In this document: positions 857-63,372 of the stretch, in pieces
Layout of the letters: each line of letters begins with the position of its first letter
How positions within the stretch are numbered: position 1 is the stretch's first letter
Assembly: GCA_963422305.1 (NCBI GenBank)
Contig: OY729422.1
Coordinates: 2,792,436 to 2,856,435 of the forward strand
Direction: 5' to 3'
Origin: Bryobacterales bacterium
GTDB lineage: Bacteria; Acidobacteriota; Terriglobia; Bryobacterales; UBA6623
Length of the DNA stretch: 64,000 bases
Translations under genes and position numbers: made by a program
Notes under the pieces: model-generated
The model's database searches: none
Seen by the model: only the letters and a program-made list of their open reading frames with translations
What the model was told of the DNA's origin: nothing

Positions 857-3385
857 TCACTCGCGGGTAAGGAATTCATCGAGGTTCAAAAGGATGCGGC
901 TGATACCGACCCAGGTGGCAGCTTCGCCGGTATCGATACCGGCGAGAGTCGCCGGAAACCATGCCTTGACTATCTCCGGGTCGGCCTCGAGCAACTCTCG
1001 CTGGTTGACGAAATAGCCCAACATCTCTTCCTGCTCGCTCACGCGGGGCGACCGCGCCAAGCAAAGTTTATACGCATAGTCGAGACGCTCCTCGAATGTG
1101 TCGCCGGCGGCTTCCGTCAAAATCCGCAGCGCCAGGCCCTGAGCGATTTCCCAGAACACCGGATCGTTCAGCAGATTCAGCGCTTGCAGCGGAGTATTCG
1201 AGCGCCCGCGCGTACAGGAGGCGACATTGCGTTCGCCAAGATCGAAGTTGGCTAGAAAAGGGTACGGAGCGGTTCGCTGGTAGTGGATGTAGAGACCGCG
1301 ACGGTAGCGGTCGCTGCCCGCGCTCTCGTTCCACTTCACCGAGCCGGCATAAGCCAGCTCGGCCACGCCGGACGGCTGCGGCGGACGGACGCTCTTGCCG
1401 CCGACACGGGGATCCAGCAGTCCCGAGACGGCAAGCGCCGTATCCCGCAGGCTCTCGGCCGGCAGGCGCAATCGAACTTGGCGGGCGAGCAAACGGTTGC
1501 CCGGGTCTTTCCCGGTTAAATCCGGACGTACATTCGACGACTGGCGGTATGTAGCCGAGGTAACAATCAGACGGTGGATGCGCTTCAGGCTCCAACCCGA
1601 CTCGATGAGCTCCGACGCCAGCCAATCGAGCAGATCGGGATGACTGGGCTCTTCTCCCTGAAAGCCGAAGTTGTTCGCCGTCGATACCAGCCCGACGCCG
1701 AAGTATTCCTGCCAGATGCGGTTGACCGCGACTCTTGCTGTCAGGGGATTCTCGGTCGAGACGATCCAGCGGGCAAGATCGAGCCGGGTCGGCCTCCGGC
1801 CCACGTGTTGGAGAGGCTGCAGTGCCGAAAGCACTCCGGGGTTAATCGACTCGCCGGGCTCGTCCCATTCGCCGCGCTCGTGAACGTAGGTCCGGCGAGG
1901 TTCCCTAGATATTTCAATCACGCGCGCCCGGCTCACATCGGGAAAAGAATCCACGACGGCGTTCAGTTCCTTTACCGCCTCTCGAAACCCTGTCGCGGCA
2001 TACTCTTCCTTGCTGGTCACACGGCCGTAGTTGCGCAGAAACCATTCCGTGACGACGTAGTCGTCGCGTTCGCTGCGCTGATCGGGAGGCGTCTTCAGGA
2101 TGCGTTGACCGTTGTCGAGATAGAGGCCGATGATGTCCCAACTCGTATCCCACTGGTGCTCCACGCCGGGATTGTCGGCGGCCCAGAGCATTTTGGCCTC
2201 CCATGGCCGCTGCAACTCGCGCACTTTGTATTTCTTGTAGATTTCCGTAATCTTGGCGTCGAGTTCGGGCTTGGCCTGAAGATAGGGTCCGATTTCGCCC
2301 GGCAGCGGCGCGTCGATGTTGACTTCATTCAGTTCGTTGATAAAGGCGAAAAGCCGGTAATAGTCTTTCTGGGGGATCGGATCGAACTTATGGTCGTGGC
2401 AGCGCGCGCACTCGACCGACAGGCCCAGCCAGACCGTTGCGATCGTATTGGTGCGGTCGACGACCTCCTCGAAGCGGAACTGCTCGATATCGACGCCGCC
2501 CTCCCGATTTTTCAAGGTATTGCGGTAGAAACCGGTAGCTACGCGCTGTTCGACTGACGTGCCGGGAAGAAGGTCTCCGGCAAGTTGCTCGATCGTGAAG
2601 CGGTCGAACGGCATATCGGCGTTGAGCGCATGGATAACCCAGTGTCGATAGCGCCACGCATGCGGGCGCGCCAAGTCCTTCTCGTAGCCGTCCGAGTCTG
2701 CATAGCGCACCTGATCGAGCCAAGGGGCGGCCCAACGTTCTCCGAAGTGTTCCGAGTGGAGGAGCCGGTCGACGAGCAACTCATAGCCGCCTGCCGTTTC
2801 GGCGTCATGAGCCTCGGGAGGGAGTCCCGTCAAATCCAGGGACGCGCGGCGCAGCAAAGTGCGCGCGGGGGCTTCGGGGGATGGTTGAATGCCTTCGCGT
2901 TCCAATCGCGCCAACACGAAAGCGTCGATCGGATTCCGCGGCCAATCCTTATTGCGCACCTGCGGCGCGGCCGGCCGGCGATTGGGACGGAAAGCCCAGT
3001 GGCTGCTTTGGGGCCGAGCCGTGATTTCCGCTGTGGACTCCCACTTCGCGCCCTGGTTGATCCATTGTCTGAACAATTCGACCTGCTCACGCGGCAGCGG
3101 CCGGCCGGGCGGCATCTGTTGCAAGTTGTCGAGGCCGGCGAGTCGTTTCATCAACAAGCTTTGGACGCCGCGGCCCGGCTCGATCGCCGGACCGGACTTG
3201 CCGCCGTTCATCGCATCTTCCCGACGGTCGAGCCTCAGACCGTTTTGCTGTAATGCGGGTCCGTGACACAGCGTGCAATTCCGCGTGAGAATCGGCTCGA
3301 TGTCTTTTGCGAATGACACTTCATCTCGGGCGGCTGCCGGCGCTGACGAAACGAGCAGACACAACCAGAGCCCCTGGAGCTTCAT
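857..3385 (-). CDS. PSCyt1 (CxxCH) / DUF1549 / DUF1553 multidomain protein, secreted
   Basis: 842-aa ORF with a signal peptide (MKLQGLWLCLLVSSAPAAA). N-terminal CTLCHG cytochrome-c-like motif, RRASLDLTGLPP (DUF1549), CARCHDHKFDPIPQKDYY signature and a DUF1553-like C-terminus. Paralogous to 44532-47684. Confidence 0.9.
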   Translation of the reverse strand: MKLQGLWLCLLVSSAPAAARDEVSFAKDIEPILTRNCTLCHGPALQQNGLRLDRREDAMNGGKSGPAIEPGRGVQSLLMKRLAGLDNLQQMPPGRPLPREQVELFRQWINQGAKWESTAEITARPQSSHWAFRPNRRPAAPQVRNKDWPRNPIDAFVLARLEREGIQPSPEAPARTLLRRASLDLTGLPPEAHDAETAGGYELLVDRLLHSEHFGERWAAPWLDQVRYADSDGYEKDLARPHAWRYRHWVIHALNADMPFDRFTIEQLAGDLLPGTSVEQRVATGFYRNTLKNREGGVDIEQFRFEEVVDRTNTIATVWLGLSVECARCHDHKFDPIPQKDYYRLFAFINELNEVNIDAPLPGEIGPYLQAKPELDAKITEIYKKYKVRELQRPWEAKMLWAADNPGVEHQWDTSWDIIGLYLDNGQRILKTPPDQRSERDDYVVTEWFLRNYGRVTSKEEYAATGFREAVKELNAVVDSFPDVSRARVIEISREPRRTYVHERGEWDEPGESINPGVLSALQPLQHVGRRPTRLDLARWIVSTENPLTARVAVNRIWQEYFGVGLVSTANNFGFQGEEPSHPDLLDWLASELIESGWSLKRIHRLIVTSATYRQSSNVRPDLTGKDPGNRLLARQVRLRLPAESLRDTALAVSGLLDPRVGGKSVRPPQPSGVAELAYAGSVKWNESAGSDRYRRGLYIHYQRTAPYPFLANFDLGERNVASCTRGRSNTPLQALNLLNDPVFWEIAQGLALRILTEAAGDTFEERLDYAYKLCLARSPRVSEQEEMLGYFVNQRELLEADPEIVKAWFPATLAGIDTGEAATWVGISRILLNLDEFLTRE

Positions 3386-4866
3386 ATGCGCCTCGTTGCT
3401 TCGATCTCGTTCATGCGGCGGCGCAGAGCCCGGTCAAGCCGCTCGACGGCCTTCCGCGCTTTCGGTCGAGGGTCGTCTATCAGATTGCGATGTTCTCCCG
3501 GATCGCTGCTCAAATGATAGAGCTCGTCCATACCCTCTCTGCTGTCCCGCACGAGCTTCCATTCCGGGGTGCGCCACATACGTTGGTCCGCCGCCTCGAC
3601 GTGTTTCTGGTTGTACTCGGCGTAGAACGCTGTTCGCCACTTAGTGCGTTTTTGCTCGAGCAACGGCAGAAAGTTCTTTCCGCGGATCAGTATCTCATCC
3701 GGCAATGCCGCGTCCGCCATGGCCAACAGCGTCGGAAACCAATCGATATTCAGCACGACCTCATCGACTCTCAGCCCCGCGCTCAGGCGTTTCGGCCAGC
3801 GAACGACCGCCGGCGTCCGCAAGGAGTGGTCATACATGTTGGCGCGCGGACCTCGATTGTCGGTCAGCAGCCAACGTCCGTTGCCCTTGTGCCAGAGTCC
3901 GTGATGGCTCAGATTATAGCCGTGATCGCTGCTGAAGACGACGACCGTGTTGTCCGCCATGCCCGTCTTATCGAGAGCATTCAGGATGCGGCCTACATTG
4001 CGGTCAACGCTCGCGACCGCCGCGAGGTATTCGCGCATCATGCGCTTGGCCCGCGCAATGTCCAGCTTGGGGTAGTCGGCCTGAGGCAGTATCGGGTCGA
4101 GGCCTCGGAACGGCTTCCAATCCGCATCGCTCAACGGCAGCCAGGTTCGGTCGCCGTCGGGCGTTCTGTTCGCGGTATTGGCGTGCGGCGCCCAATAATG
4201 AATGTTGACAAGAAAGGGACGTTTTCCATCTTGCGCCTGAATAAACCGAATTGCCTCGTTCGTCAGGATGTCGGGCGTGTATCCGCGAACGACGTTGATC
4301 TCTCCGGCGGATTCGACCTTGGGGTCTTTCGAAATCCCCGCTCCGTTACGAAAGCCATAAAACCGGTCGTAGCCGTTTCGGGTGGGCAGATACTTATCGA
4401 GAACCCCGAGATGCCACTTGCCTATGAACAACGTTTTATAGCCGTCGGCCTGCAATATCTTCGGCCACGTCGGAATCGTTGGGTCGAGGCCGTTATCGGG
4501 TTCGGCGTCCGGATTGAGATAATCGGTGATCCCGATATCGGTACCGTAGCGGCCCGTCATCAAGCCCGCCCGCGACGGGCTGCAAACCGGGGTTGTCGTG
4601 AAAGCATTGGTAAGCCCCGCGCCTTCCCTGTAGAGGCGGTCGATGTTCGGCGTGTGCGCTTGGCCGTTGCCCAAGGCGCCGATGCTCCAGGCGGCCTGAT
4701 CGTCGGCGTATAGAAAGACGATGTTCGGCCGCGAGACGGCCGCTCCTGCCGGAGCAACGCTCAGCAACGCAAGGCATAGACGGCGCTTCGCAGACAACTG
4801 TCCCCATTGTACGACAGAAGCGGTTAACTTGAAACCGAAACCAGAGATATTGAAATACGGTTTCAT
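3382..4866 (-). CDS. Sulfatase (formylglycine-dependent, arylsulfatase family)
   Basis: 494-aa ORF. NIVFLYADD plus the sulfatase signature PVCSPSRAGLMTGRY (C-x-P-x-R). The stop overlaps the start of the downstream gene by 4 nt (ATGA). Confidence 0.9.
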   Translation of the reverse strand: MKPYFNISGFGFKLTASVVQWGQLSAKRRLCLALLSVAPAGAAVSRPNIVFLYADDQAAWSIGALGNGQAHTPNIDRLYREGAGLTNAFTTTPVCSPSRAGLMTGRYGTDIGITDYLNPDAEPDNGLDPTIPTWPKILQADGYKTLFIGKWHLGVLDKYLPTRNGYDRFYGFRNGAGISKDPKVESAGEINVVRGYTPDILTNEAIRFIQAQDGKRPFLVNIHYWAPHANTANRTPDGDRTWLPLSDADWKPFRGLDPILPQADYPKLDIARAKRMMREYLAAVASVDRNVGRILNALDKTGMADNTVVVFSSDHGYNLSHHGLWHKGNGRWLLTDNRGPRANMYDHSLRTPAVVRWPKRLSAGLRVDEVVLNIDWFPTLLAMADAALPDEILIRGKNFLPLLEQKRTKWRTAFYAEYNQKHVEAADQRMWRTPEWKLVRDSREGMDELYHLSSDPGEHRNLIDDPRPKARKAVERLDRALRRRMNEIEATRRI

Positions 4867-4872
4867 ATATTG

Positions 4873-6783
4873 TTATTGCCGGTCCCGGTCTCGCTGAAAC
4901 TCCGCAAGAGCCTTTTTTGCAAGGGCGGCCGCTTGCGGGTAGCTGCCGGCGGCAGCCGCTTGGTAGTGCCGGAGCGCGGCCTCCGTGTCGCCGGCCGCTT
5001 TGTATAGCCCGGCGAGATTATAATGCACGGTTCCGATCCCGGGTTCGATTTCGAGCGCCTTTTCATAGATTGCCGCCGCTTCATCGAAGCGGCGGAGGGA
5101 CACGAGAACCGCGCCGAGATTACCGTAGGCGTCGGCATACCGAGGATCGACCCTGATGGCGGCCTGGAGCTGCCGCTCGGCCCTTTCCACCTCGCCCTTG
5201 TTGGCTAGCGCGACGGCAAGATTATTGTATGACGGGCCGTGGCCGGGGTCCGCCCGGATCGCCTTGCGGTAGTAGGCGACGGCGTTCTCGGCGTCTCCCT
5301 TGAGATTCCAGGCCACTCCAAGGTTGTGAAGAATGAAAACGGACGGCGGCGATTTGGCCGCCGCCGCCGTTTCGAAGTGCTCGACGGCTTGGTCGACTTG
5401 ACCGGACTGCAAGTATCGATATCCGAGGTCGATGCGTCTTGGCAGATCGCCCGGGTCGACTTCGAGTTGTTTCCTGAGCCCGGCGATTTGCGCCGCAACT
5501 TCCTTCGTCTGAAATTTCTCAGCCAGAATTTCGCGGTCGGCGGCTGTTTCAGGCATCACCTGAAGCCATAGATCGCCCATCTCCTGAGAGGTCTTCCAGC
5601 CATAGGTCACGCGCTCGGGTGGACGGCTCGGGTTTCGGTGGTTGTTGGCGGAGTTGTCGTAATGAAAGCGTGTGAACAGTATGCTTCCCTTGGGCAAGAA
5701 CACCGGTTGCTTGTAGCGGTATTCATCCTGCCAGTCGAAGCTCCATTCGTCGATTTGCAACAGGGGCTGCCGGGACCCGTCGGGCAGCTTGGCCCATGCC
5801 TCGATCGATTTGGCGAGATAGTGGGCGTGGGCGTAAACGTTCAGTGCCTCGACATCGACGGGCAAAACGAAAGAGTCCTCCGTCCGATAGTTCTCCTCGC
5901 CGCCCGGGATGTCGATCGTGTTTTTTCCCAACCTCAGGATGAAAGGCTTGCGGGACGGTGCTTGGTCGGTGAAATAGAGCCCCAGCGATGCCCGGATCGT
6001 TTCCGGCTTGCCGGTCGGAACCATATGCAGCTCGATCACCAGGTCCGTCCCGGGATCCAACGTCCAGGCCATGTCCAGCGGACGGAGAGCCGGTTGCTTG
6101 CCCGGCGTCCAACCGATCCAGTGCCCCTCGGGATCGAACACGGCGTCGAGCGCCATACCGCCGTCGAACCCCGGCCCGCCGGTTAACGCATCTTGCGCCC
6201 GCGAGCGCCCGGAGCGGTCCAGTAGCATCCGTGCGTGGTGTACCAGACGGGCATTTCCGGGCCGAAATTCGAATCCGCGCACAAAGCGGCACTTTTCAAC
6301 TGGGATGGGGATCACGAAGTTGTGGAAAACGTCGGGGCCGTCGGCCGGAACGGGAAACGCTTCGGTCATTTCGACGATGAGATCGGGCGCGCCGAGTTGC
6401 CAGCCCGCGGGCCAAGCCGGTTGAGGCGGCAACTCGGCTGGGTCGCCTTCCGGTAGGCCGCCGTCGAGCCATTCGAGAAGAGTCCGGCGCTCCGCAGGCG
6501 TCAAGCTGCGATCGCCTTCGAACTCGCCGTGTCCCGCCGCAGGCGGCCAAGGCGGCATGTAGCCGCTGCGTACAACGGTCTGGATGGACTTCGACCGTTT
6601 GACGACGTTCCGATAGCTCAGCAGTGGGAACGGGCCGGCCTCGCCGGGTCTGTGGCAGCCGGCACAGCGGTTCCAGACGATGCGCGCAATGTCTCGGTTG
6701 AATGTTGGCGCGACGGCCGCCGACTGTGCCGCGAGCGATAAGGCTGCAAGCGAGAAACCGGCGCAAAAGCCTTTCACAGCCAT
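4873..6783 (-). CDS. Secreted fusion protein: CxxCH haem-binding-like module + PHM/DBH-like copper monooxygenase fold + C-terminal TPR repeats
   Basis: 636-aa ORF with a signal peptide and CAGCHRPGEAGPF. His/Met pattern matches copper type II ascorbate-dependent monooxygenases: LVHHARMLL, IELHMVP, YAHAHYLAKS, SQEMGDLW. The C-terminal roughly 200 aa are TPR-like (AVEHFETAAAA..., YYRKAIRADPGH, IYEKALEIEPG). Confidence 0.75.
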   Translation of the reverse strand: MAVKGFCAGFSLAALSLAAQSAAVAPTFNRDIARIVWNRCAGCHRPGEAGPFPLLSYRNVVKRSKSIQTVVRSGYMPPWPPAAGHGEFEGDRSLTPAERRTLLEWLDGGLPEGDPAELPPQPAWPAGWQLGAPDLIVEMTEAFPVPADGPDVFHNFVIPIPVEKCRFVRGFEFRPGNARLVHHARMLLDRSGRSRAQDALTGGPGFDGGMALDAVFDPEGHWIGWTPGKQPALRPLDMAWTLDPGTDLVIELHMVPTGKPETIRASLGLYFTDQAPSRKPFILRLGKNTIDIPGGEENYRTEDSFVLPVDVEALNVYAHAHYLAKSIEAWAKLPDGSRQPLLQIDEWSFDWQDEYRYKQPVFLPKGSILFTRFHYDNSANNHRNPSRPPERVTYGWKTSQEMGDLWLQVMPETAADREILAEKFQTKEVAAQIAGLRKQLEVDPGDLPRRIDLGYRYLQSGQVDQAVEHFETAAAAKSPPSVFILHNLGVAWNLKGDAENAVAYYRKAIRADPGHGPSYNNLAVALANKGEVERAERQLQAAIRVDPRYADAYGNLGAVLVSLRRFDEAAAIYEKALEIEPGIGTVHYNLAGLYKAAGDTEAALRHYQAAAAGSYPQAAALAKKALAEFQRDRDRQ

Positions 6784-59073: not shown

Positions 59074-59557
59074 CCGCCACTACAACGCTTGCTCGACCAG
59101 CGCCGCGAGATCGTCCGATTCGTCGCTTTGAAACTCGATTTCGAGCGCATGGGGCGGTTGCGCAAGATCGCTGCCGGTCGTTGATACGGATACTGCGCCG
59201 GCCGTTGCGGCCGCCCGTGAGCGTTTTGAAACGATTGCCGGGCGAATGCCGAGCCGAGCGCTGCTGTTGTTGTCGACGTCCGCAGCGAAGAAGGATGCGG
59301 TATAATAGCAGCAGTCTCAAGGGAACAAGCCGTGTATTCGCTCGACACGCATCGTCGATGCTGGCCTATCGGCCCGGTAGCCATTCGAGGATGGATTGAA
59401 AACAGCCTTCTTTTCAACGGCTTACCAGTCTTTCTGTTCTTCGACCTCCGCTATCTGAACCGAGACCGCGTTGCAGGTTCAGGACACGACCTTACCGGGA
59501 TTTGGTCTCCATCCGCAAGCAGAAGCAGCCTCTTTCCATTAGCAACGTCGCGCTTCC

Positions 59558-59604
59558 CCCTGTCCGACGAATTGGTGTAAAATACACCAATTCGTCGGAC
59601 AGGG
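59558..59604. promoter_or_regulatory. Perfect 47-bp palindrome (22-bp arms, AAA centre) 11 nt upstream of the RHH gene; operator and/or SD-sequestering hairpin
   Basis: CCCTGTCCGACGAATTGGTGTA-AAA-TACACCAATTCGTCGGACAGGG read directly. The 3' end of the right arm (CAGGGA) is the only SD-like element before ATG 59616. Confidence 0.7.
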
Positions 59605-59615
59605 ATTCGATACCC

Positions 59616-59852
59616 ATGGGTCGTCCAAGGCAACACAAGCAGACCGCTCGGCTGAGCGTCAGCTTCGAAAAGGTCGATTATGACCGCGTGACCGCGATTG
59701 CCGAAGCCAACGATGTCTCTACAGCGTGGATCATCCGAAAGGCCGTAACCGCCTATTTGGATACTTTTGGACATTCCGCCCTTCCCATTGGTGCGCAGCG
59801 CGAGCAGCAGCAAGTAGGCGCACTGGCGACTGATGAAAGGCAGATCCGGTGA
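59616..59852 (+). CDS. Ribbon-helix-helix (CopG/Arc-like) DNA-binding protein, putative controller of the R-M operon
   Basis: 78 aa. MGRPRQHKQTARLSVSFEKVDYDRVTAIAEANDVSTAWIIRKAVTAYL has the beta-strand/helix/helix RHH pattern. The stop overlaps the nuclease GTG start (GTGA). Confidence 0.7.
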   Translation: MGRPRQHKQTARLSVSFEKVDYDRVTAIAEANDVSTAWIIRKAVTAYLDTFGHSALPIGAQREQQQVGALATDERQIR

Positions 59853-61216
59853 GCAAAAAAAGTGATCTTCCCTTCGGCAGCGAGTTCTCACCCTCGCAGA
59901 TCGCACTTCCAAAGGTATTGGAGTTTGCGGCTCTTCATGGCGGCAACTGGCGCGCCTTTGAGGAAACCGTACGAGAAGCCTATTTCGAGGGACACAAGAC
60001 CAGCGCCTACAACCGCGCAAAACTCGCCAACAATACTAAACTGGGAATGATCGCCTACGGGATCATTGACCGGGATGCGACGCTGACCCCGTTGGGCCAA
60101 GATCTCTACGATCTACGCAATGACGAAAATGTGTTGCATGACCGATTGGCCCGGCACATTCTTCTAAACCTTCGTGGAATGACCCTCGTCCAGTGTATTC
60201 GCGATATGGTGGCGGCTGGCGAACAAGTAAATCTCACCACCCTTCGAGAGGGCCTCGCAGCACGGGGCATTCACTACCCATCCGGAGGCAAACACCCCAG
60301 CATGATGCGCCTATGGCTCGCCAAAGCCGAAGTCTTTATCGGCAGCCGGTGGCAAGTCAATGAACGCAGAATTGAAGAAATCCTCGGCATTGACCCGGAC
60401 GAATTCGCGGTCCTGGGCGACTTTACCGTCGAGCAAAGAGCCTTCCTGAAAGCTCTAGCGAACATGGGGACCGACGAACCCCAACTCGCCAATGCGGTGG
60501 CCAAGCTCGCTACAGCGACCTATGGCGTGAAGTTTCCAGAAAAGAGCCTGCCGAAGCTGGTCCTCAACGATTTGGAGAGGGCAGGATACATCACAACAGA
60601 GAAGACCACGACTGGACGAGGGGCTAAGCCCTTTCAAGTGTTTCCCACCAACAAGCTGATCGCCGATGTAGTTGAACCACTCCTTGAGCAGCTTCGAGGG
60701 CAGACCGATCCAAAGCTGTTGGCGTTATTGCGAACGCCGCTCTCCGCGATCTTGAGGGAGATGAAAGGCAAGGATCGCTATAGGGCAGGGCTTGCCCTTG
60801 AAGCGTTGGCCTTCAAGATCATGCGCCTCCTTGACATGACCTACGTTGCGACTCGATTGCGCGCGAACCAGACAGGCGGCGCAGAAGTCGATCTGATCTT
60901 TGAGAGCGCCCGCCTAGTGTTCTTCCGTTGGCAGATTCAGTGCAAGAACACAGCTCGTGTTTCTCTAGACGATGTTGCAAAGGAAGTGGGCCTTACCCAT
61001 TTCCTGAAGAGTAACGTGATTGTCATAGTGACAACAGGAGAAATCAGCAGCCAGGCCCGACGATACGCTAACAAGATTATGGCTGATTCAAACCTTGCAA
61101 TCGTCATTCTGGACGGTGGAGACCTGATCGCAATAAGTGAACAACCAGCGGAAATATTGCGGGCATTCGAACGTGAAGCACGCCACGCGATGAACCTAAA
61201 GAAGCTTGATCTCTAA
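59849..61216 (+). CDS. Restriction endonuclease with C-terminal Mrr-like PD-(D/E)xK catalytic domain
   Basis: 455 aa. C-terminus GLALEALAFKIMRLLDM...GGAEVDLIFE...RWQIQCKNT...VIVIVTTGEISSQARRYA...IVILDGGDL matches the Mrr_cat pattern (D...QxK). The N-terminal roughly 330 aa are helical/wHTH-like and likely bind DNA. Confidence 0.75.
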   Translation: MSKKSDLPFGSEFSPSQIALPKVLEFAALHGGNWRAFEETVREAYFEGHKTSAYNRAKLANNTKLGMIAYGIIDRDATLTPLGQDLYDLRNDENVLHDRLARHILLNLRGMTLVQCIRDMVAAGEQVNLTTLREGLAARGIHYPSGGKHPSMMRLWLAKAEVFIGSRWQVNERRIEEILGIDPDEFAVLGDFTVEQRAFLKALANMGTDEPQLANAVAKLATATYGVKFPEKSLPKLVLNDLERAGYITTEKTTTGRGAKPFQVFPTNKLIADVVEPLLEQLRGQTDPKLLALLRTPLSAILREMKGKDRYRAGLALEALAFKIMRLLDMTYVATRLRANQTGGAEVDLIFESARLVFFRWQIQCKNTARVSLDDVAKEVGLTHFLKSNVIVIVTTGEISSQARRYANKIMADSNLAIVILDGGDLIAISEQPAEILRAFEREARHAMNLKKLDL

Positions 61217-61232
61217 TGGGGGAGGCTAGACG

Positions 61233-62285
61233 ATGACAACCAGCAAGCCTCCGAGTGTAGTCCACAGAACGTCTCTCGGTCGCATCTACCACGGCGATAG
61301 TTTAGAGGTAATGAAGGCTACAAAGCCAGCATCAATCGCTCTAGTTATGACGAGCCCACCGTTCGCATTAACTCGCAAGAAGGACTACGGAAACGAGCAA
61401 GAAGATGATTATCTCGAATGGTTTCGCCGCTTCGCGGAGCAGTTTCGTCGCATCTTGAAGGATGACGGAAGCGTTGTGATCGATCTAGGCGGCGCATGGA
61501 AACCCGGAATACCGGTGCGTAGCCTTTATCACTTCAAGCTACTAATCATGCTTTGCGAAGAATACGATTTTCATCTGGCACAGGAATTCTATTGGTGGAA
61601 TCCCTCTAAGCTCCCCACGCCTGCTGAGTGGGTCAATGTACGGAGAATTCGGGTAAAGGATGGTGTCAACACCGTTTGGTGGTTGTCCAAGACACCATGG
61701 CCGCGCGCCAGTAATCGACGAGTCTTGCAGCCATACAGTGACAGCATGAAGACCTTGTTGAGCAACGGCTATAAGCCAATGCTACGCCCATCGGGGCACG
61801 ACATCAGCGATAAGTTCTCCATCAACAATGGTGCCGCGATCCCACCGAACCTTATCGCGATTCCAAACACAGAGAGCAACAGCAGTTATTTGCGTTACTG
61901 CAAGGAGATTGGGATCAAGGCTCATCCTGCACGTTTCCCAGCCGCATTGCCGGAGTATTTTGTCAGGATGGTGACGGATCCGGGAGATTTGGTTCTGGAT
62001 CCCTTTGCTGGAAGCTGCGTCACGGGCGAAGTCGCCGAACGACTTGGGCGGAAGTGGGTATGTGTAGAAATTGTCGAGTCATATCTGCGCGGTGCTAAGG
62101 GAAGGTTTGGACAGATAGTGGACGCACCGAAACCGAAGAATCCGAAGAATCCGAAGAAGGATGCTGACGGTTACTATCGCATTCCCCATCCCGGGTTGCT
62201 TTGGAATGGACGTGCGGAAGATGACGAAGAACCGCTTCCCAAGGATGGCGGTAGACGGCGCACCACGGCGGCGAATCTGCCGTAG
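61233..62285 (+). CDS. Beta-class amino DNA methyltransferase (N4-cytosine/N6-adenine family; SPPF motif suggests N4-cytosine)
   Basis: 350 aa. Motif IV LVMTSPPFAL. HPARFPAALPEYFV. Motif I VLDPFAGSCVTGEVAERLGRKWVCVEI. Basic repetitive tail KPKNPKNPKK. Confidence 0.9.
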   Translation: MTTSKPPSVVHRTSLGRIYHGDSLEVMKATKPASIALVMTSPPFALTRKKDYGNEQEDDYLEWFRRFAEQFRRILKDDGSVVIDLGGAWKPGIPVRSLYHFKLLIMLCEEYDFHLAQEFYWWNPSKLPTPAEWVNVRRIRVKDGVNTVWWLSKTPWPRASNRRVLQPYSDSMKTLLSNGYKPMLRPSGHDISDKFSINNGAAIPPNLIAIPNTESNSSYLRYCKEIGIKAHPARFPAALPEYFVRMVTDPGDLVLDPFAGSCVTGEVAERLGRKWVCVEIVESYLRGAKGRFGQIVDAPKPKNPKNPKKDADGYYRIPHPGLLWNGRAEDDEEPLPKDGGRRRTTAANLP

Positions 62286-62327
62286 CACCGTCGCCATCGG
62301 TGCAGACTTTCGAGTGAGGGAAGCGGT

Positions 62328-63221
62328 TTAGCGGCAAAGCTTGCGCTGAATTGCCGCCGCCACCCGCTCGGCGGCTTGGCTCAGCGTCGCATCGTCAAGA
62401 TGGACGTAGCGGTTTGTCGTGGTAGCCCGGCGATGCCCGAGCAGGCGTCCGGCGACATGCAGGCTCTCGCCGTTCATGACCGCGTGCGAGGCGTGCGCAT
62501 GGCGCAGGTCATGCAGTCGCGTATCCGCCACAATTCCGGCCGCGTCGCGCGCCTTGATCCAGAACCTCCGCAGGTCATCTGTACTCAAAGGCCCGTTTCC
62601 CTTGTCGCACGGAAACACCCACTCGCCGGATGCTGTATTGGCCAGCCTGTCCAGCAGATCCCGCGCCGCCTCTCCGAGCAGAACGTGCCTCGGGCCGGTC
62701 TTCGCGTCAATCAGCGCGAGCCGGTCGGGCTTGACCTCGCACCGGCGCAGGCAGCGAATCTCGCCCGGCCTGCATCCGGTCAGCAGGAGCAGCCGCACCG
62801 CCGCGACGCAAACCGGGTTCTCGTCTTCGCTCTGGCGCAGGACCGCGCCGAGCCTCGCAAGGTCGTCCGCCCCGAGCAGCCGCCCGCGCGGCGGTCGCCG
62901 GTAGCGGACAATGCCGATGCACGGGTTCCCCGCAGCTTCGGGCCGATGGCCCCACGCGATGGCGCAGTCGAACATGTTGCGCAGTATGTCATGACTTCGA
63001 TTCGCGCCGCCCGGCTTTCTGCGTCCGTATTCGTGGAAGAAGCGGGCAATATTGGCGCGCACGACCGAGCCGACGCGGAGATGGCCGAGAGCGGGCAGGA
63101 TGGCGCTGTTGAGATAGCTCATGGTGGCCTTCACCGTGGACGGCTTCCACGAAGGCGAGCGCCGCTCGACGTATTCGGCGGCGAACTTCGTCAGCGTCGG
63201 GCCGGAAGCGGGAAGCGGCAC
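62328..63221 (-). CDS. Tyrosine recombinase / phage-type integrase (core-binding and catalytic domains)
   Basis: 297-aa ORF (GTG start). LLLLTGCRPGEI (Arg), HDLRHAHASH (HxxR) and LGHRRATTTNRYVH (His...Tyr). Confidence 0.85.
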   Translation of the reverse strand: MPLPASGPTLTKFAAEYVERRSPSWKPSTVKATMSYLNSAILPALGHLRVGSVVRANIARFFHEYGRRKPGGANRSHDILRNMFDCAIAWGHRPEAAGNPCIGIVRYRRPPRGRLLGADDLARLGAVLRQSEDENPVCVAAVRLLLLTGCRPGEIRCLRRCEVKPDRLALIDAKTGPRHVLLGEAARDLLDRLANTASGEWVFPCDKGNGPLSTDDLRRFWIKARDAAGIVADTRLHDLRHAHASHAVMNGESLHVAGRLLGHRRATTTNRYVHLDDATLSQAAERVAAAIQRKLCR

Positions 63222-63372
63222 CGGACTCCCGCCGCCTCCATGTCCTGCGCCCGTTCGGTCGCGCCCGCAGTCCGAGCCCCGGCACCGCGCTGTCCCACAG
63301 CACGGCCTCGCGACCGTCCTCAGCGGTGAGGGCGCGAGCGCCCACCATGGTGATCTTCGTTCTGTTCGTCAT
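63222..63372 (-). pseudogene. Out-of-frame N-terminal (DUF4102/arm-binding-like) fragment of the same integrase
   Basis: ORF 62989-63372 begins MTNRTKITMVGARALTAEDGREAVLWDSAVPGLGLRARPNGRRTW, the usual N-terminus of P4-type integrases. It then leaves the integrase frame. Only about 12 codons separate it from the PTLTKFAAEYVERR block, where roughly 40-50 are expected. Confidence 0.5.

Follow-up and report, generated by a model that had tools for sequence, protein, structure and literature searches.

The window, by which we mean the whole 64,000-nucleotide stretch of Bryobacterales DNA that was analysed, contains three tightly packed genes on the plus strand: a 78-aa ribbon-helix-helix (RHH) protein (59616..59852), a 455-aa restriction endonuclease candidate (59849..61216) and a methyltransferase (61233..62285). 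The TGA stop codon of the RHH gene (59850-59852) overlaps the GTG start codon of the nuclease gene at 59849 (GTGA), and the nuclease and methyltransferase genes are separated by 16 nt. Directly in front of the RHH gene lies a perfect inverted repeat of 47 bp (59558..59604). An earlier note on this DNA had placed an RHH protein at the head of a restriction-modification (R-M) operon, in the position usually taken by a controller (C) protein, and this was confirmed: the open reading frame of 78 aa, its match to Pfam RHH_1 and the stop/start overlap are all present, and the gene lies directly upstream of the nuclease with 4 nt in common.

The only domain match of the nuclease is a C-terminal Mrr_cat domain (residues 316-428), while the N-terminal ~300 aa are uncharacterised. 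No sequence relative was found in the PDB (E<=1), PADLOC or NCBIfam, and the protein is not a homologue of R.PvuII. Its family is large, with more than 2600 matches, and highly conserved: in the loci that we fetched, which come from bacterial as well as archaeal phyla, identity is 53-94%, and the methyltransferase adjoins the nuclease in 78 of these 80 loci. The nuclease/methyltransferase family is very widespread, is found in both bacteria and archaea and is common in MAGs of sponge symbionts. The methyltransferase belongs to the N6_N4 type, has the TSPPF motif and matches M.PvuII (PDB 1boo_A, E=8e-109) over residues 10-292 (283 residues) as well as MTase_II of PADLOC (E=5e-123). Given this close homology to M.PvuII, it is very probably an m4C enzyme of the beta class, and the operon is a type II R-M pair that combines a PvuII-type methyltransferase with a non-PvuII nuclease. 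The homology to M.PvuII together with the avoidance of CAGCTG across the whole genome (249 sites observed, 700 expected; the second most avoided of the 64 six-base palindromes) suggests that the specificity of the system is CAGCTG. Methylation-sensitive control through a CAGCTG site in the operator was considered and rejected, as there are zero such sites in 59340-62330. A different site, GTGCAC (ApaLI), is nearly absent from the genome (11 observed, 370 expected), suggesting that the lineage has long had a second R-M specificity.

The RHH protein matches Pfam RHH_1 with 24.1 bits (cut-off 20.5) over residues 12-49. An AF2 model, built from an alignment of 16 sequences, has the expected strand-helix-helix order with helices at residues 19-31 and 36-51 and a pLDDT of 90-97 for residues 11-50; the tail (residues 51-78) is poorly conserved and has a pLDDT of about 50. 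Its top matches in structure, with TMt values of up to 0.82, are without exception DNA-binding proteins of the RHH fold: PutA-RHH on its operator, ORF56, CopA_SO, Arc and CopG. The R-x-S-x-S sequence of the beta-strand resembles that of CopG. In close relatives, the reading frame begins two codons further upstream (ATG CCC ATG, 80 aa); the first of these ATGs is ATA in the window (59610-59612), so that the shared MGRP start alone remains.

In 20 of the 80 loci, the nuclease gene is immediately preceded, on the same strand, by a gene for an RHH homologue. Two further loci, L035 (at 142) and L036 (at 2787), have a different small RHH-like protein upstream of the nuclease, with a match to RHH_9 that is below threshold; here an RHH protein may have been recruited independently. 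An RHH or RHH-like gene is therefore present in 22 of the 80 homologous nuclease loci and absent from 58, which still carry the methyltransferase, and there was no HTH C protein among the 63 upstream ORFs inspected in the loci that lack RHH. When RHH presence is mapped onto a tree of the nucleases it is strongly clustered (10 changes, where shuffling the labels gives about 18 and not one shuffle in 500 gave so few), yet well-supported branches of the same tree force at least five gains or losses, indicating that the RHH protein is an old but dispensable companion. It co-diverges with the nuclease. A search of metagenomes with the single RHH protein returned one locus.

The operon is part of a mini-island of ~3.9 kb (59340-63240) that has lower GC, consists of RHH, nuclease, methyltransferase and integrase, and is found end-to-end in two other loci (L004 and L086). 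Its left end is a non-coding leader (59340..59557) that is common to the closest relatives only, and its right end is a tyrosine integrase gene on the minus strand (62328..63221). The left edge is sharp, with blastn boundaries at 59339-59348 in six relatives, and the matches to L004 and L086 reach ~63200, through the integrase. A search for an att site gave no candidate: there is no direct repeat of 9 nt or more between the island ends and no tRNA gene in the region 58-64 kb. The triad of RHH, nuclease and methyltransferase recurs, with the 4-nt overlap kept, beside MmeI-like genes, GmrSD, OLD/UvrD, IS elements, integrases and housekeeping genes, and its recurrence in such unrelated neighbourhoods indicates that it moves as a unit.

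The inverted repeat consists of two arms of 22 nt (59558-59579 and 59583-59604) that are 100% complementary and surround the centre AAA, and it ends 11 nt before the ATG of the RHH gene (59616). At the outer end of the right arm lies a Shine-Dalgarno-like AGGGA on the plus strand (59601..59605), 10 nt before the ATG, and this is the sole purine-rich run preceding the start codon. The earlier note had described exactly this geometry, including the overlap with the only SD-like element, and the sequence bears it out. In relatives, the matching column has CAGGGA, CGGGGA, GAGGAG, TAGGAC or GAGGGT. The arm sequence occurs only once in the 4.33-Mb genome, and the repeat ranks first among all its perfect palindromes with a loop of up to 6 nt (the second has 18-nt arms); simple arithmetic gives a chance expectation of ~1e-6 per genome for such a palindrome. 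RNA folding of 141 nt that include the palindrome gave -59.8 kcal/mol, with z = -6.2 in comparison to shuffled sequences. Several ordinary explanations for a sequence of this kind could be discarded: a repeated element (REP, MITE or IS end) is ruled out by the uniqueness of the arm in the genome, searches for known RNA families returned only sub-threshold miRNA-hairpin look-alikes, and no intrinsic terminator is predicted at the palindrome, where a U-tract is absent.

Comparison with about 100 related loci showed that only the central 15-17 bp of the palindrome are conserved. This core, GGTGTAAAATACACC (59574..59588), has the form GGTG-N7-CACC with half-site centres 11 bp apart. Scored in 14 distinct RHH-bearing sequences of clade 1, it shows no variation in 12 of 15 columns and at least 90% conservation in the remaining three, and the only features that the 14 upstream regions have in common are tGGTGTAAAATACACCa and the SD-like run: in the more distant clade-1 loci, the sequence around these two elements is unrelated, and the blastn homology of diverged loci to the window starts exactly at the edge of the core, at 59573/4. 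RHH-bearing relatives always have the core 26-28 nt away from the ATG. The outer 16 nt of each arm, in contrast, have no conservation; perfect pairing outward from the centre extends over 2-9 nt in every relative, compared with 22 nt in the window, and RNAalifold retains a core stem of 7 bp alone across the relatives. Because no other genome has the 22-nt arms, the regulatory design cannot be the 47-bp palindrome in its entirety. The proposal of the earlier note that the palindrome is a regulatory site of the RHH protein is thus likely for the central 15-17 bp and unsupported for the full 47 bp with its 22-nt arms; as for conservation among homologous R-M loci, which the note had also raised, the core is kept in the 14 RHH-bearing relatives, while RHH itself is confined to 22 of 80 loci and perfect arms to this genome.

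The core also varies together with the protein. The RHH proteins fall into three clades with distinct beta-strands (TARLSVSF; ARLSVSL and variants; KTRFSVAL), each with its own version of the motif: clade 2 has GGTG-N7-CACC too (for example GGTGCAAAAAACACC), with another GGTG before it, and the motif of clade 3 is GCACCA-nn-ATGAACCA. In three loci (L006, L007 and L079), the RHH genes look decayed, with many changes at otherwise invariant positions, and the GGTG half-sites have decayed in parallel while the nuclease is intact. When the 16-mer TGGTGTAAAATACACC was searched in 400 genomes of the phylum, there was one extra match (L100), which has no RHH gene beside it; ~0.75 matches are expected by chance. 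Conservation, co-variation and joint decay are most likely the phylogenetic footprint of an operator that is recognised by the RHH protein: a palindromic site upstream of the RHH gene is phylogenetically conserved, which makes operator binding the best reading, and we infer that the protein binds the core. The spacing of 11 bp between the half-site centres fits two RHH dimers on adjacent major grooves.

The putative promoter coincides with this core. A -10 hexamer TAAAAT (59578..59583, plus strand) is predicted within the spacer of the operator, together with a weak -35-like TTCCCC (59554..59559, plus strand) at a distance of 18 nt, compared with 16 nt in relatives. In nearly all clade-1 loci, the sequence within 130 nt of the ATG that looks most like a sigma-70 promoter consists of a weak-to-moderate -35 (boxes include TTGCTC, TTCAAA, TTTCCA and TTTCCC), a spacer of 16-18 nt and a TAAAAT at a fixed position; in the window and the rest of its subclade, the -35 (TTCCCC or TTTCCC, 3/6) is weak. 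Clade 2 has TTGCTA-16-TTTAAT and TTGCTC-17-TTTAAT abutting the GGTG motifs and clade 3 has TTGACA-17-CAAAAT inside its motif; the -35 boxes of these two clades (TTGCTA, TTGCTC, TTGACA) are better than those of clade 1, and the -10 overlaps the GGTG/CACC motifs. The decayed loci L006, L007 and L079 keep the T-A---T of the -10 (TAGAAT or TAGGAT). A strict consensus scan found no plus-strand promoter at the palindrome. As all three RHH clades back this position of the -10, we place it at 59578-59583 and expect transcription to start near 59590, inside the right arm. No clade has a second conserved operator upstream of the -35; clade 1 has a single dyad over the -10.

RHH protein bound at GGTGTAAAATACACC would occlude the -10 and repress its own transcription, a simple negative autoregulation that would extend to the coupled nuclease, with its weak GTG start, and to the downstream M.PvuII-like methyltransferase. 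The circuit would then be a negative-feedback limiter rather than an activator/repressor switch of the C-protein type, and any excess of methyltransferase over nuclease would stem from translation signals: the methyltransferase has an ATG and a strong SD (GGGAGG, 61220-61225), while the nuclease gene starts with GTG behind a poor SD and relies on coupling, so that translation should favour the methyltransferase. A repressor-only circuit does not alone explain safe establishment in a new host.

The perfect outer arms require a different explanation. In alignments with 8 close and 13 wider relatives, a patch of ~10 nt in the left arm (59563..59572), including a 2-nt insertion, is found in the window alone, and this patch is the exact complement of positions 59590-59599 of the right arm. 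The right arm of the window is typical for the family, with just one position off the consensus of the relatives. The predicted hairpin has a dG of -42 kcal/mol in the window and of -4 to -32 kcal/mol in relatives. Quasipalindrome correction via template switching is an established mutational mechanism (PMC7202029), and most likely the perfect arms arose by one replication template switch in a pre-existing quasipalindrome, with the patch as the rewritten tract: a single switch accounts for all left-arm changes at once and independent mutations do not. The likeness to the mutations of that study is that a cluster of substitutions plus an indel perfects an imperfect inverted repeat in one step; the difference is that here a natural event in a regulatory region is deduced by comparison, and not measured with a reporter (PMC7202029). 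The switch would have widened the spacer between -35 and -10 from 16 to 18 nt and extended the complementarity as far as the SD. The outer arms therefore look like a recent copying error that is unique to this genome, and not like a conserved RNA switch. In another pair of near-identical loci (L092 and L034), a single base lengthens each arm of the perfect palindrome from 6 to 9 nt and lowers the hairpin dG from -26 to -32, a difference which hints that palindrome-extending changes recur in this region.

We therefore favour, as the probable though by no means certain explanation of the locus, a combination of two layers: a conserved promoter-operator core that would serve autorepression by the RHH protein, and genome-specific arms that a template switch would have added. 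The alternatives differ mainly in what they make of the arms. One possibility, which we consider unlikely, is that the extended pairing was selected: by analogy to IS10 and IS50, an anti-SD in the left arm would silence only read-through transcripts from outside the island, the arms would have been perfected adaptively after insertion downstream of a plus-strand sigma-factor gene, and transcripts from the operon's own promoter would be translated. Fold-back inhibition in IS10 and IS50 was reportedly described by Davis, Simons and Kleckner in 1985. The geometry, with the -10 in the loop and the SD at the end of the right arm, fits such a function, no terminator is predicted between the upstream plus-strand gene and the operon, and a read-through transcript from upstream would fold into a hairpin of about -42 kcal/mol that buries the SD. 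Pairing in relatives is also above controls: 59% of cells are paired at outer arm positions (23-41% in slid controls) and 78% at the five SD-proximal pairs in clade-1 relatives (20-61% in slid controls), with double changes at two pairs, and CCCT/AGGG-type pairing is kept in most clade-1 relatives (the same 78% of cells), with CTCCT/AGGAG in L034 and L092. However, slid controls reach 55-61% and the match is thus partly compositional, because the C/T-rich -35 region faces the purine-rich SD; the observed pairing was reached in 5 of 500 shuffles, a control that is weak for related sequences, and an anti-SD, judged by eye, is present in only one of five clade-2 loci. The pairing above controls leaves room for some selection for an extended hairpin, or for recurrent template switching.

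Less probable still is the RNA mechanism proposed in the earlier note, in which both arms are part of the mRNA that the operon itself makes, and a 22-bp stem keeps the SD of RHH and, via coupling, that of the nuclease inaccessible until it is opened. In its favour, the hairpin, if transcribed, would be very stable and would contain the SD, and the -35 of the predicted internal promoter is weak. But the best -10 lies in the loop of the palindrome and is conserved there, so that the operon's own mRNA should start in the right arm and lack the left arm; the hairpin would be unable to form in such transcripts or to regulate them, and only read-through RNA could carry it. Moreover, the arms are perfect in this genome only, RNAalifold keeps no more than the 7-bp core stem, and a perfect stem of 22 bp would be a near-permanent block and not a switch. 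We therefore do not uphold the hairpin as a regulator of translation.

The earlier note, which compared the RHH protein with C proteins, had also suggested a timing switch, and in its explicit form the RHH protein would activate a weak promoter when scarce and repress it when abundant, giving a bistable system that delays the nuclease in a new host. We regard this as very unlikely. The gene has the position of a C gene and the -35 is weak, but the sole dyad lies over the -10, a second operator upstream of the -35 was seen in none of the clades, and one operator over the core promoter predicts repression only, whereas a timing switch of the C.PvuII kind requires both activation and repression; in addition, the methyltransferase is in the same operon, so a delay of nuclease relative to methyltransferase cannot arise from this promoter. 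To our knowledge, RHH regulators are nearly always repressors. The odds appear longer still for an antitoxin-like partner that would bind the nuclease through its tail (residues 51-78) and inhibit it in the manner of type II toxin-antitoxin pairs, with conditional autoregulation: the 4-nt overlap with the nuclease gene, the semi-conserved LP(L/I) motif in the C-terminal extension beyond the RHH fold and the RHH antitoxins among the structural matches would suit it, but the pairing is not obligate, as most homologous nuclease loci have a methyltransferase but lack RHH altogether, and the tail shows little conservation and a low pLDDT. That assembly or polishing made the arms perfect is hardly credible, even though they are known from a single assembly, as the change is a clean 10-nt patch amid otherwise ordinary sequence and the genes on both sides are intact and 87-94% identical to relatives.

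Full-text searches of the literature turned up no type II R-M system for which an RHH controller has been described. The closest parallel in architecture are the PvuII C-protein systems (C.PvuII-R.PvuII / M.PvuII; PMC2175313, PMC2377437), in which a small autoregulator gene directly precedes the endonuclease gene and the two are expressed together, the regulator's own promoter has a palindromic operator and the methyltransferase is a close homologue of the one described here. The differences are substantial: C proteins are Xre-type HTH proteins and not RHH proteins; the OL/OR C-boxes of PvuII mediate activation and then repression, whereas one operator over the -10 predicts repression here; PvuII has divergent units in place of a single operon with the nuclease before the methyltransferase; and the 157-aa R.PvuII is unrelated to the 455-aa Mrr_cat protein. 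RptR, found in an island with a type I R-M system and DarTG (PMC12255303), is likewise a small pure repressor that heads an R-M operon, binds short repeats in the operon promoter and is conserved with the R-M genes across genomes. Its sites, however, are TAGCTA direct repeats and it belongs to type I systems of Gammaproteobacteria (PMC12255303); it is also not homologous to the RHH protein, which has no sequence match in the PDB and for which the fold search returned RHH proteins only. CopG/Arc autorepressors have the same fold, and binding here would be as a dimer of dimers on a ~15-bp dyad that overlaps the promoter. MtsR of MANTIS (bioRxiv 10.64898/2026.09.23.753747), a putative repressor of the Arc/CopG type, belongs to a defence operon based on methylation. 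Unlike the protein described here, CopG/Arc proteins and MtsR act on the copy number of plasmids, on phage genes or on a BREX-related system, and no classical type II R-M pair is described as being under the control of one. The RHH-led operon does not overturn current understanding; controllers of R-M operons are already known as a kind, and it is the RHH type for which we found no published precedent in type II systems.

The control of restriction enzymes after horizontal transfer is a matter of life or death for the recipient and has been studied almost solely with HTH C proteins. With a putative RHH repressor and a clearly definable 15-bp operator in about a quarter of the family, and no regulator in the rest, the system offers a natural comparison of loci with and without control and makes a testable case for a repression-only design, and the homology to M.PvuII ties it to the best-studied C-controlled system. 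The window is, in addition, a clean natural case of quasipalindrome perfection inside a promoter, with effects on expression that can be predicted. As a tentative and rather doubtful generalisation, the RHH protein and its portable promoter-operator could form an undescribed class of controllers that act on type II and occasionally type IIG systems by pure negative feedback. The quasipalindromic flanks of the operator would then be a mutational tuning knob: single template switches could lengthen the spacer between -35 and -10 and give rise to a stem that sequesters the SD and, after each new insertion, shields the toxic nuclease gene from transcription that comes from outside.

Three loci (L093, L094 and L095, at 3201-6637) have the same RHH gene and operator, but behind them only 40 aa of the nuclease N-terminus are left as a stub, and next comes an unrelated Eco57I-like type IIG gene of ~1000 aa. 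The RHH protein of these three loci (P0140) occurs on 11 contigs, and it seems that recombination has joined the RHH module to a different restriction gene. The Eco57I-like gene that lies upstream of the operon in the window was considered as a relative of the IIG gene behind RHH in L095, but the two are not closely related. In a further locus (L091, 3201-5600), an intact RHH gene with its operator is followed by IS transposase genes instead of the nuclease, and the same metagenome has the intact triad L092.
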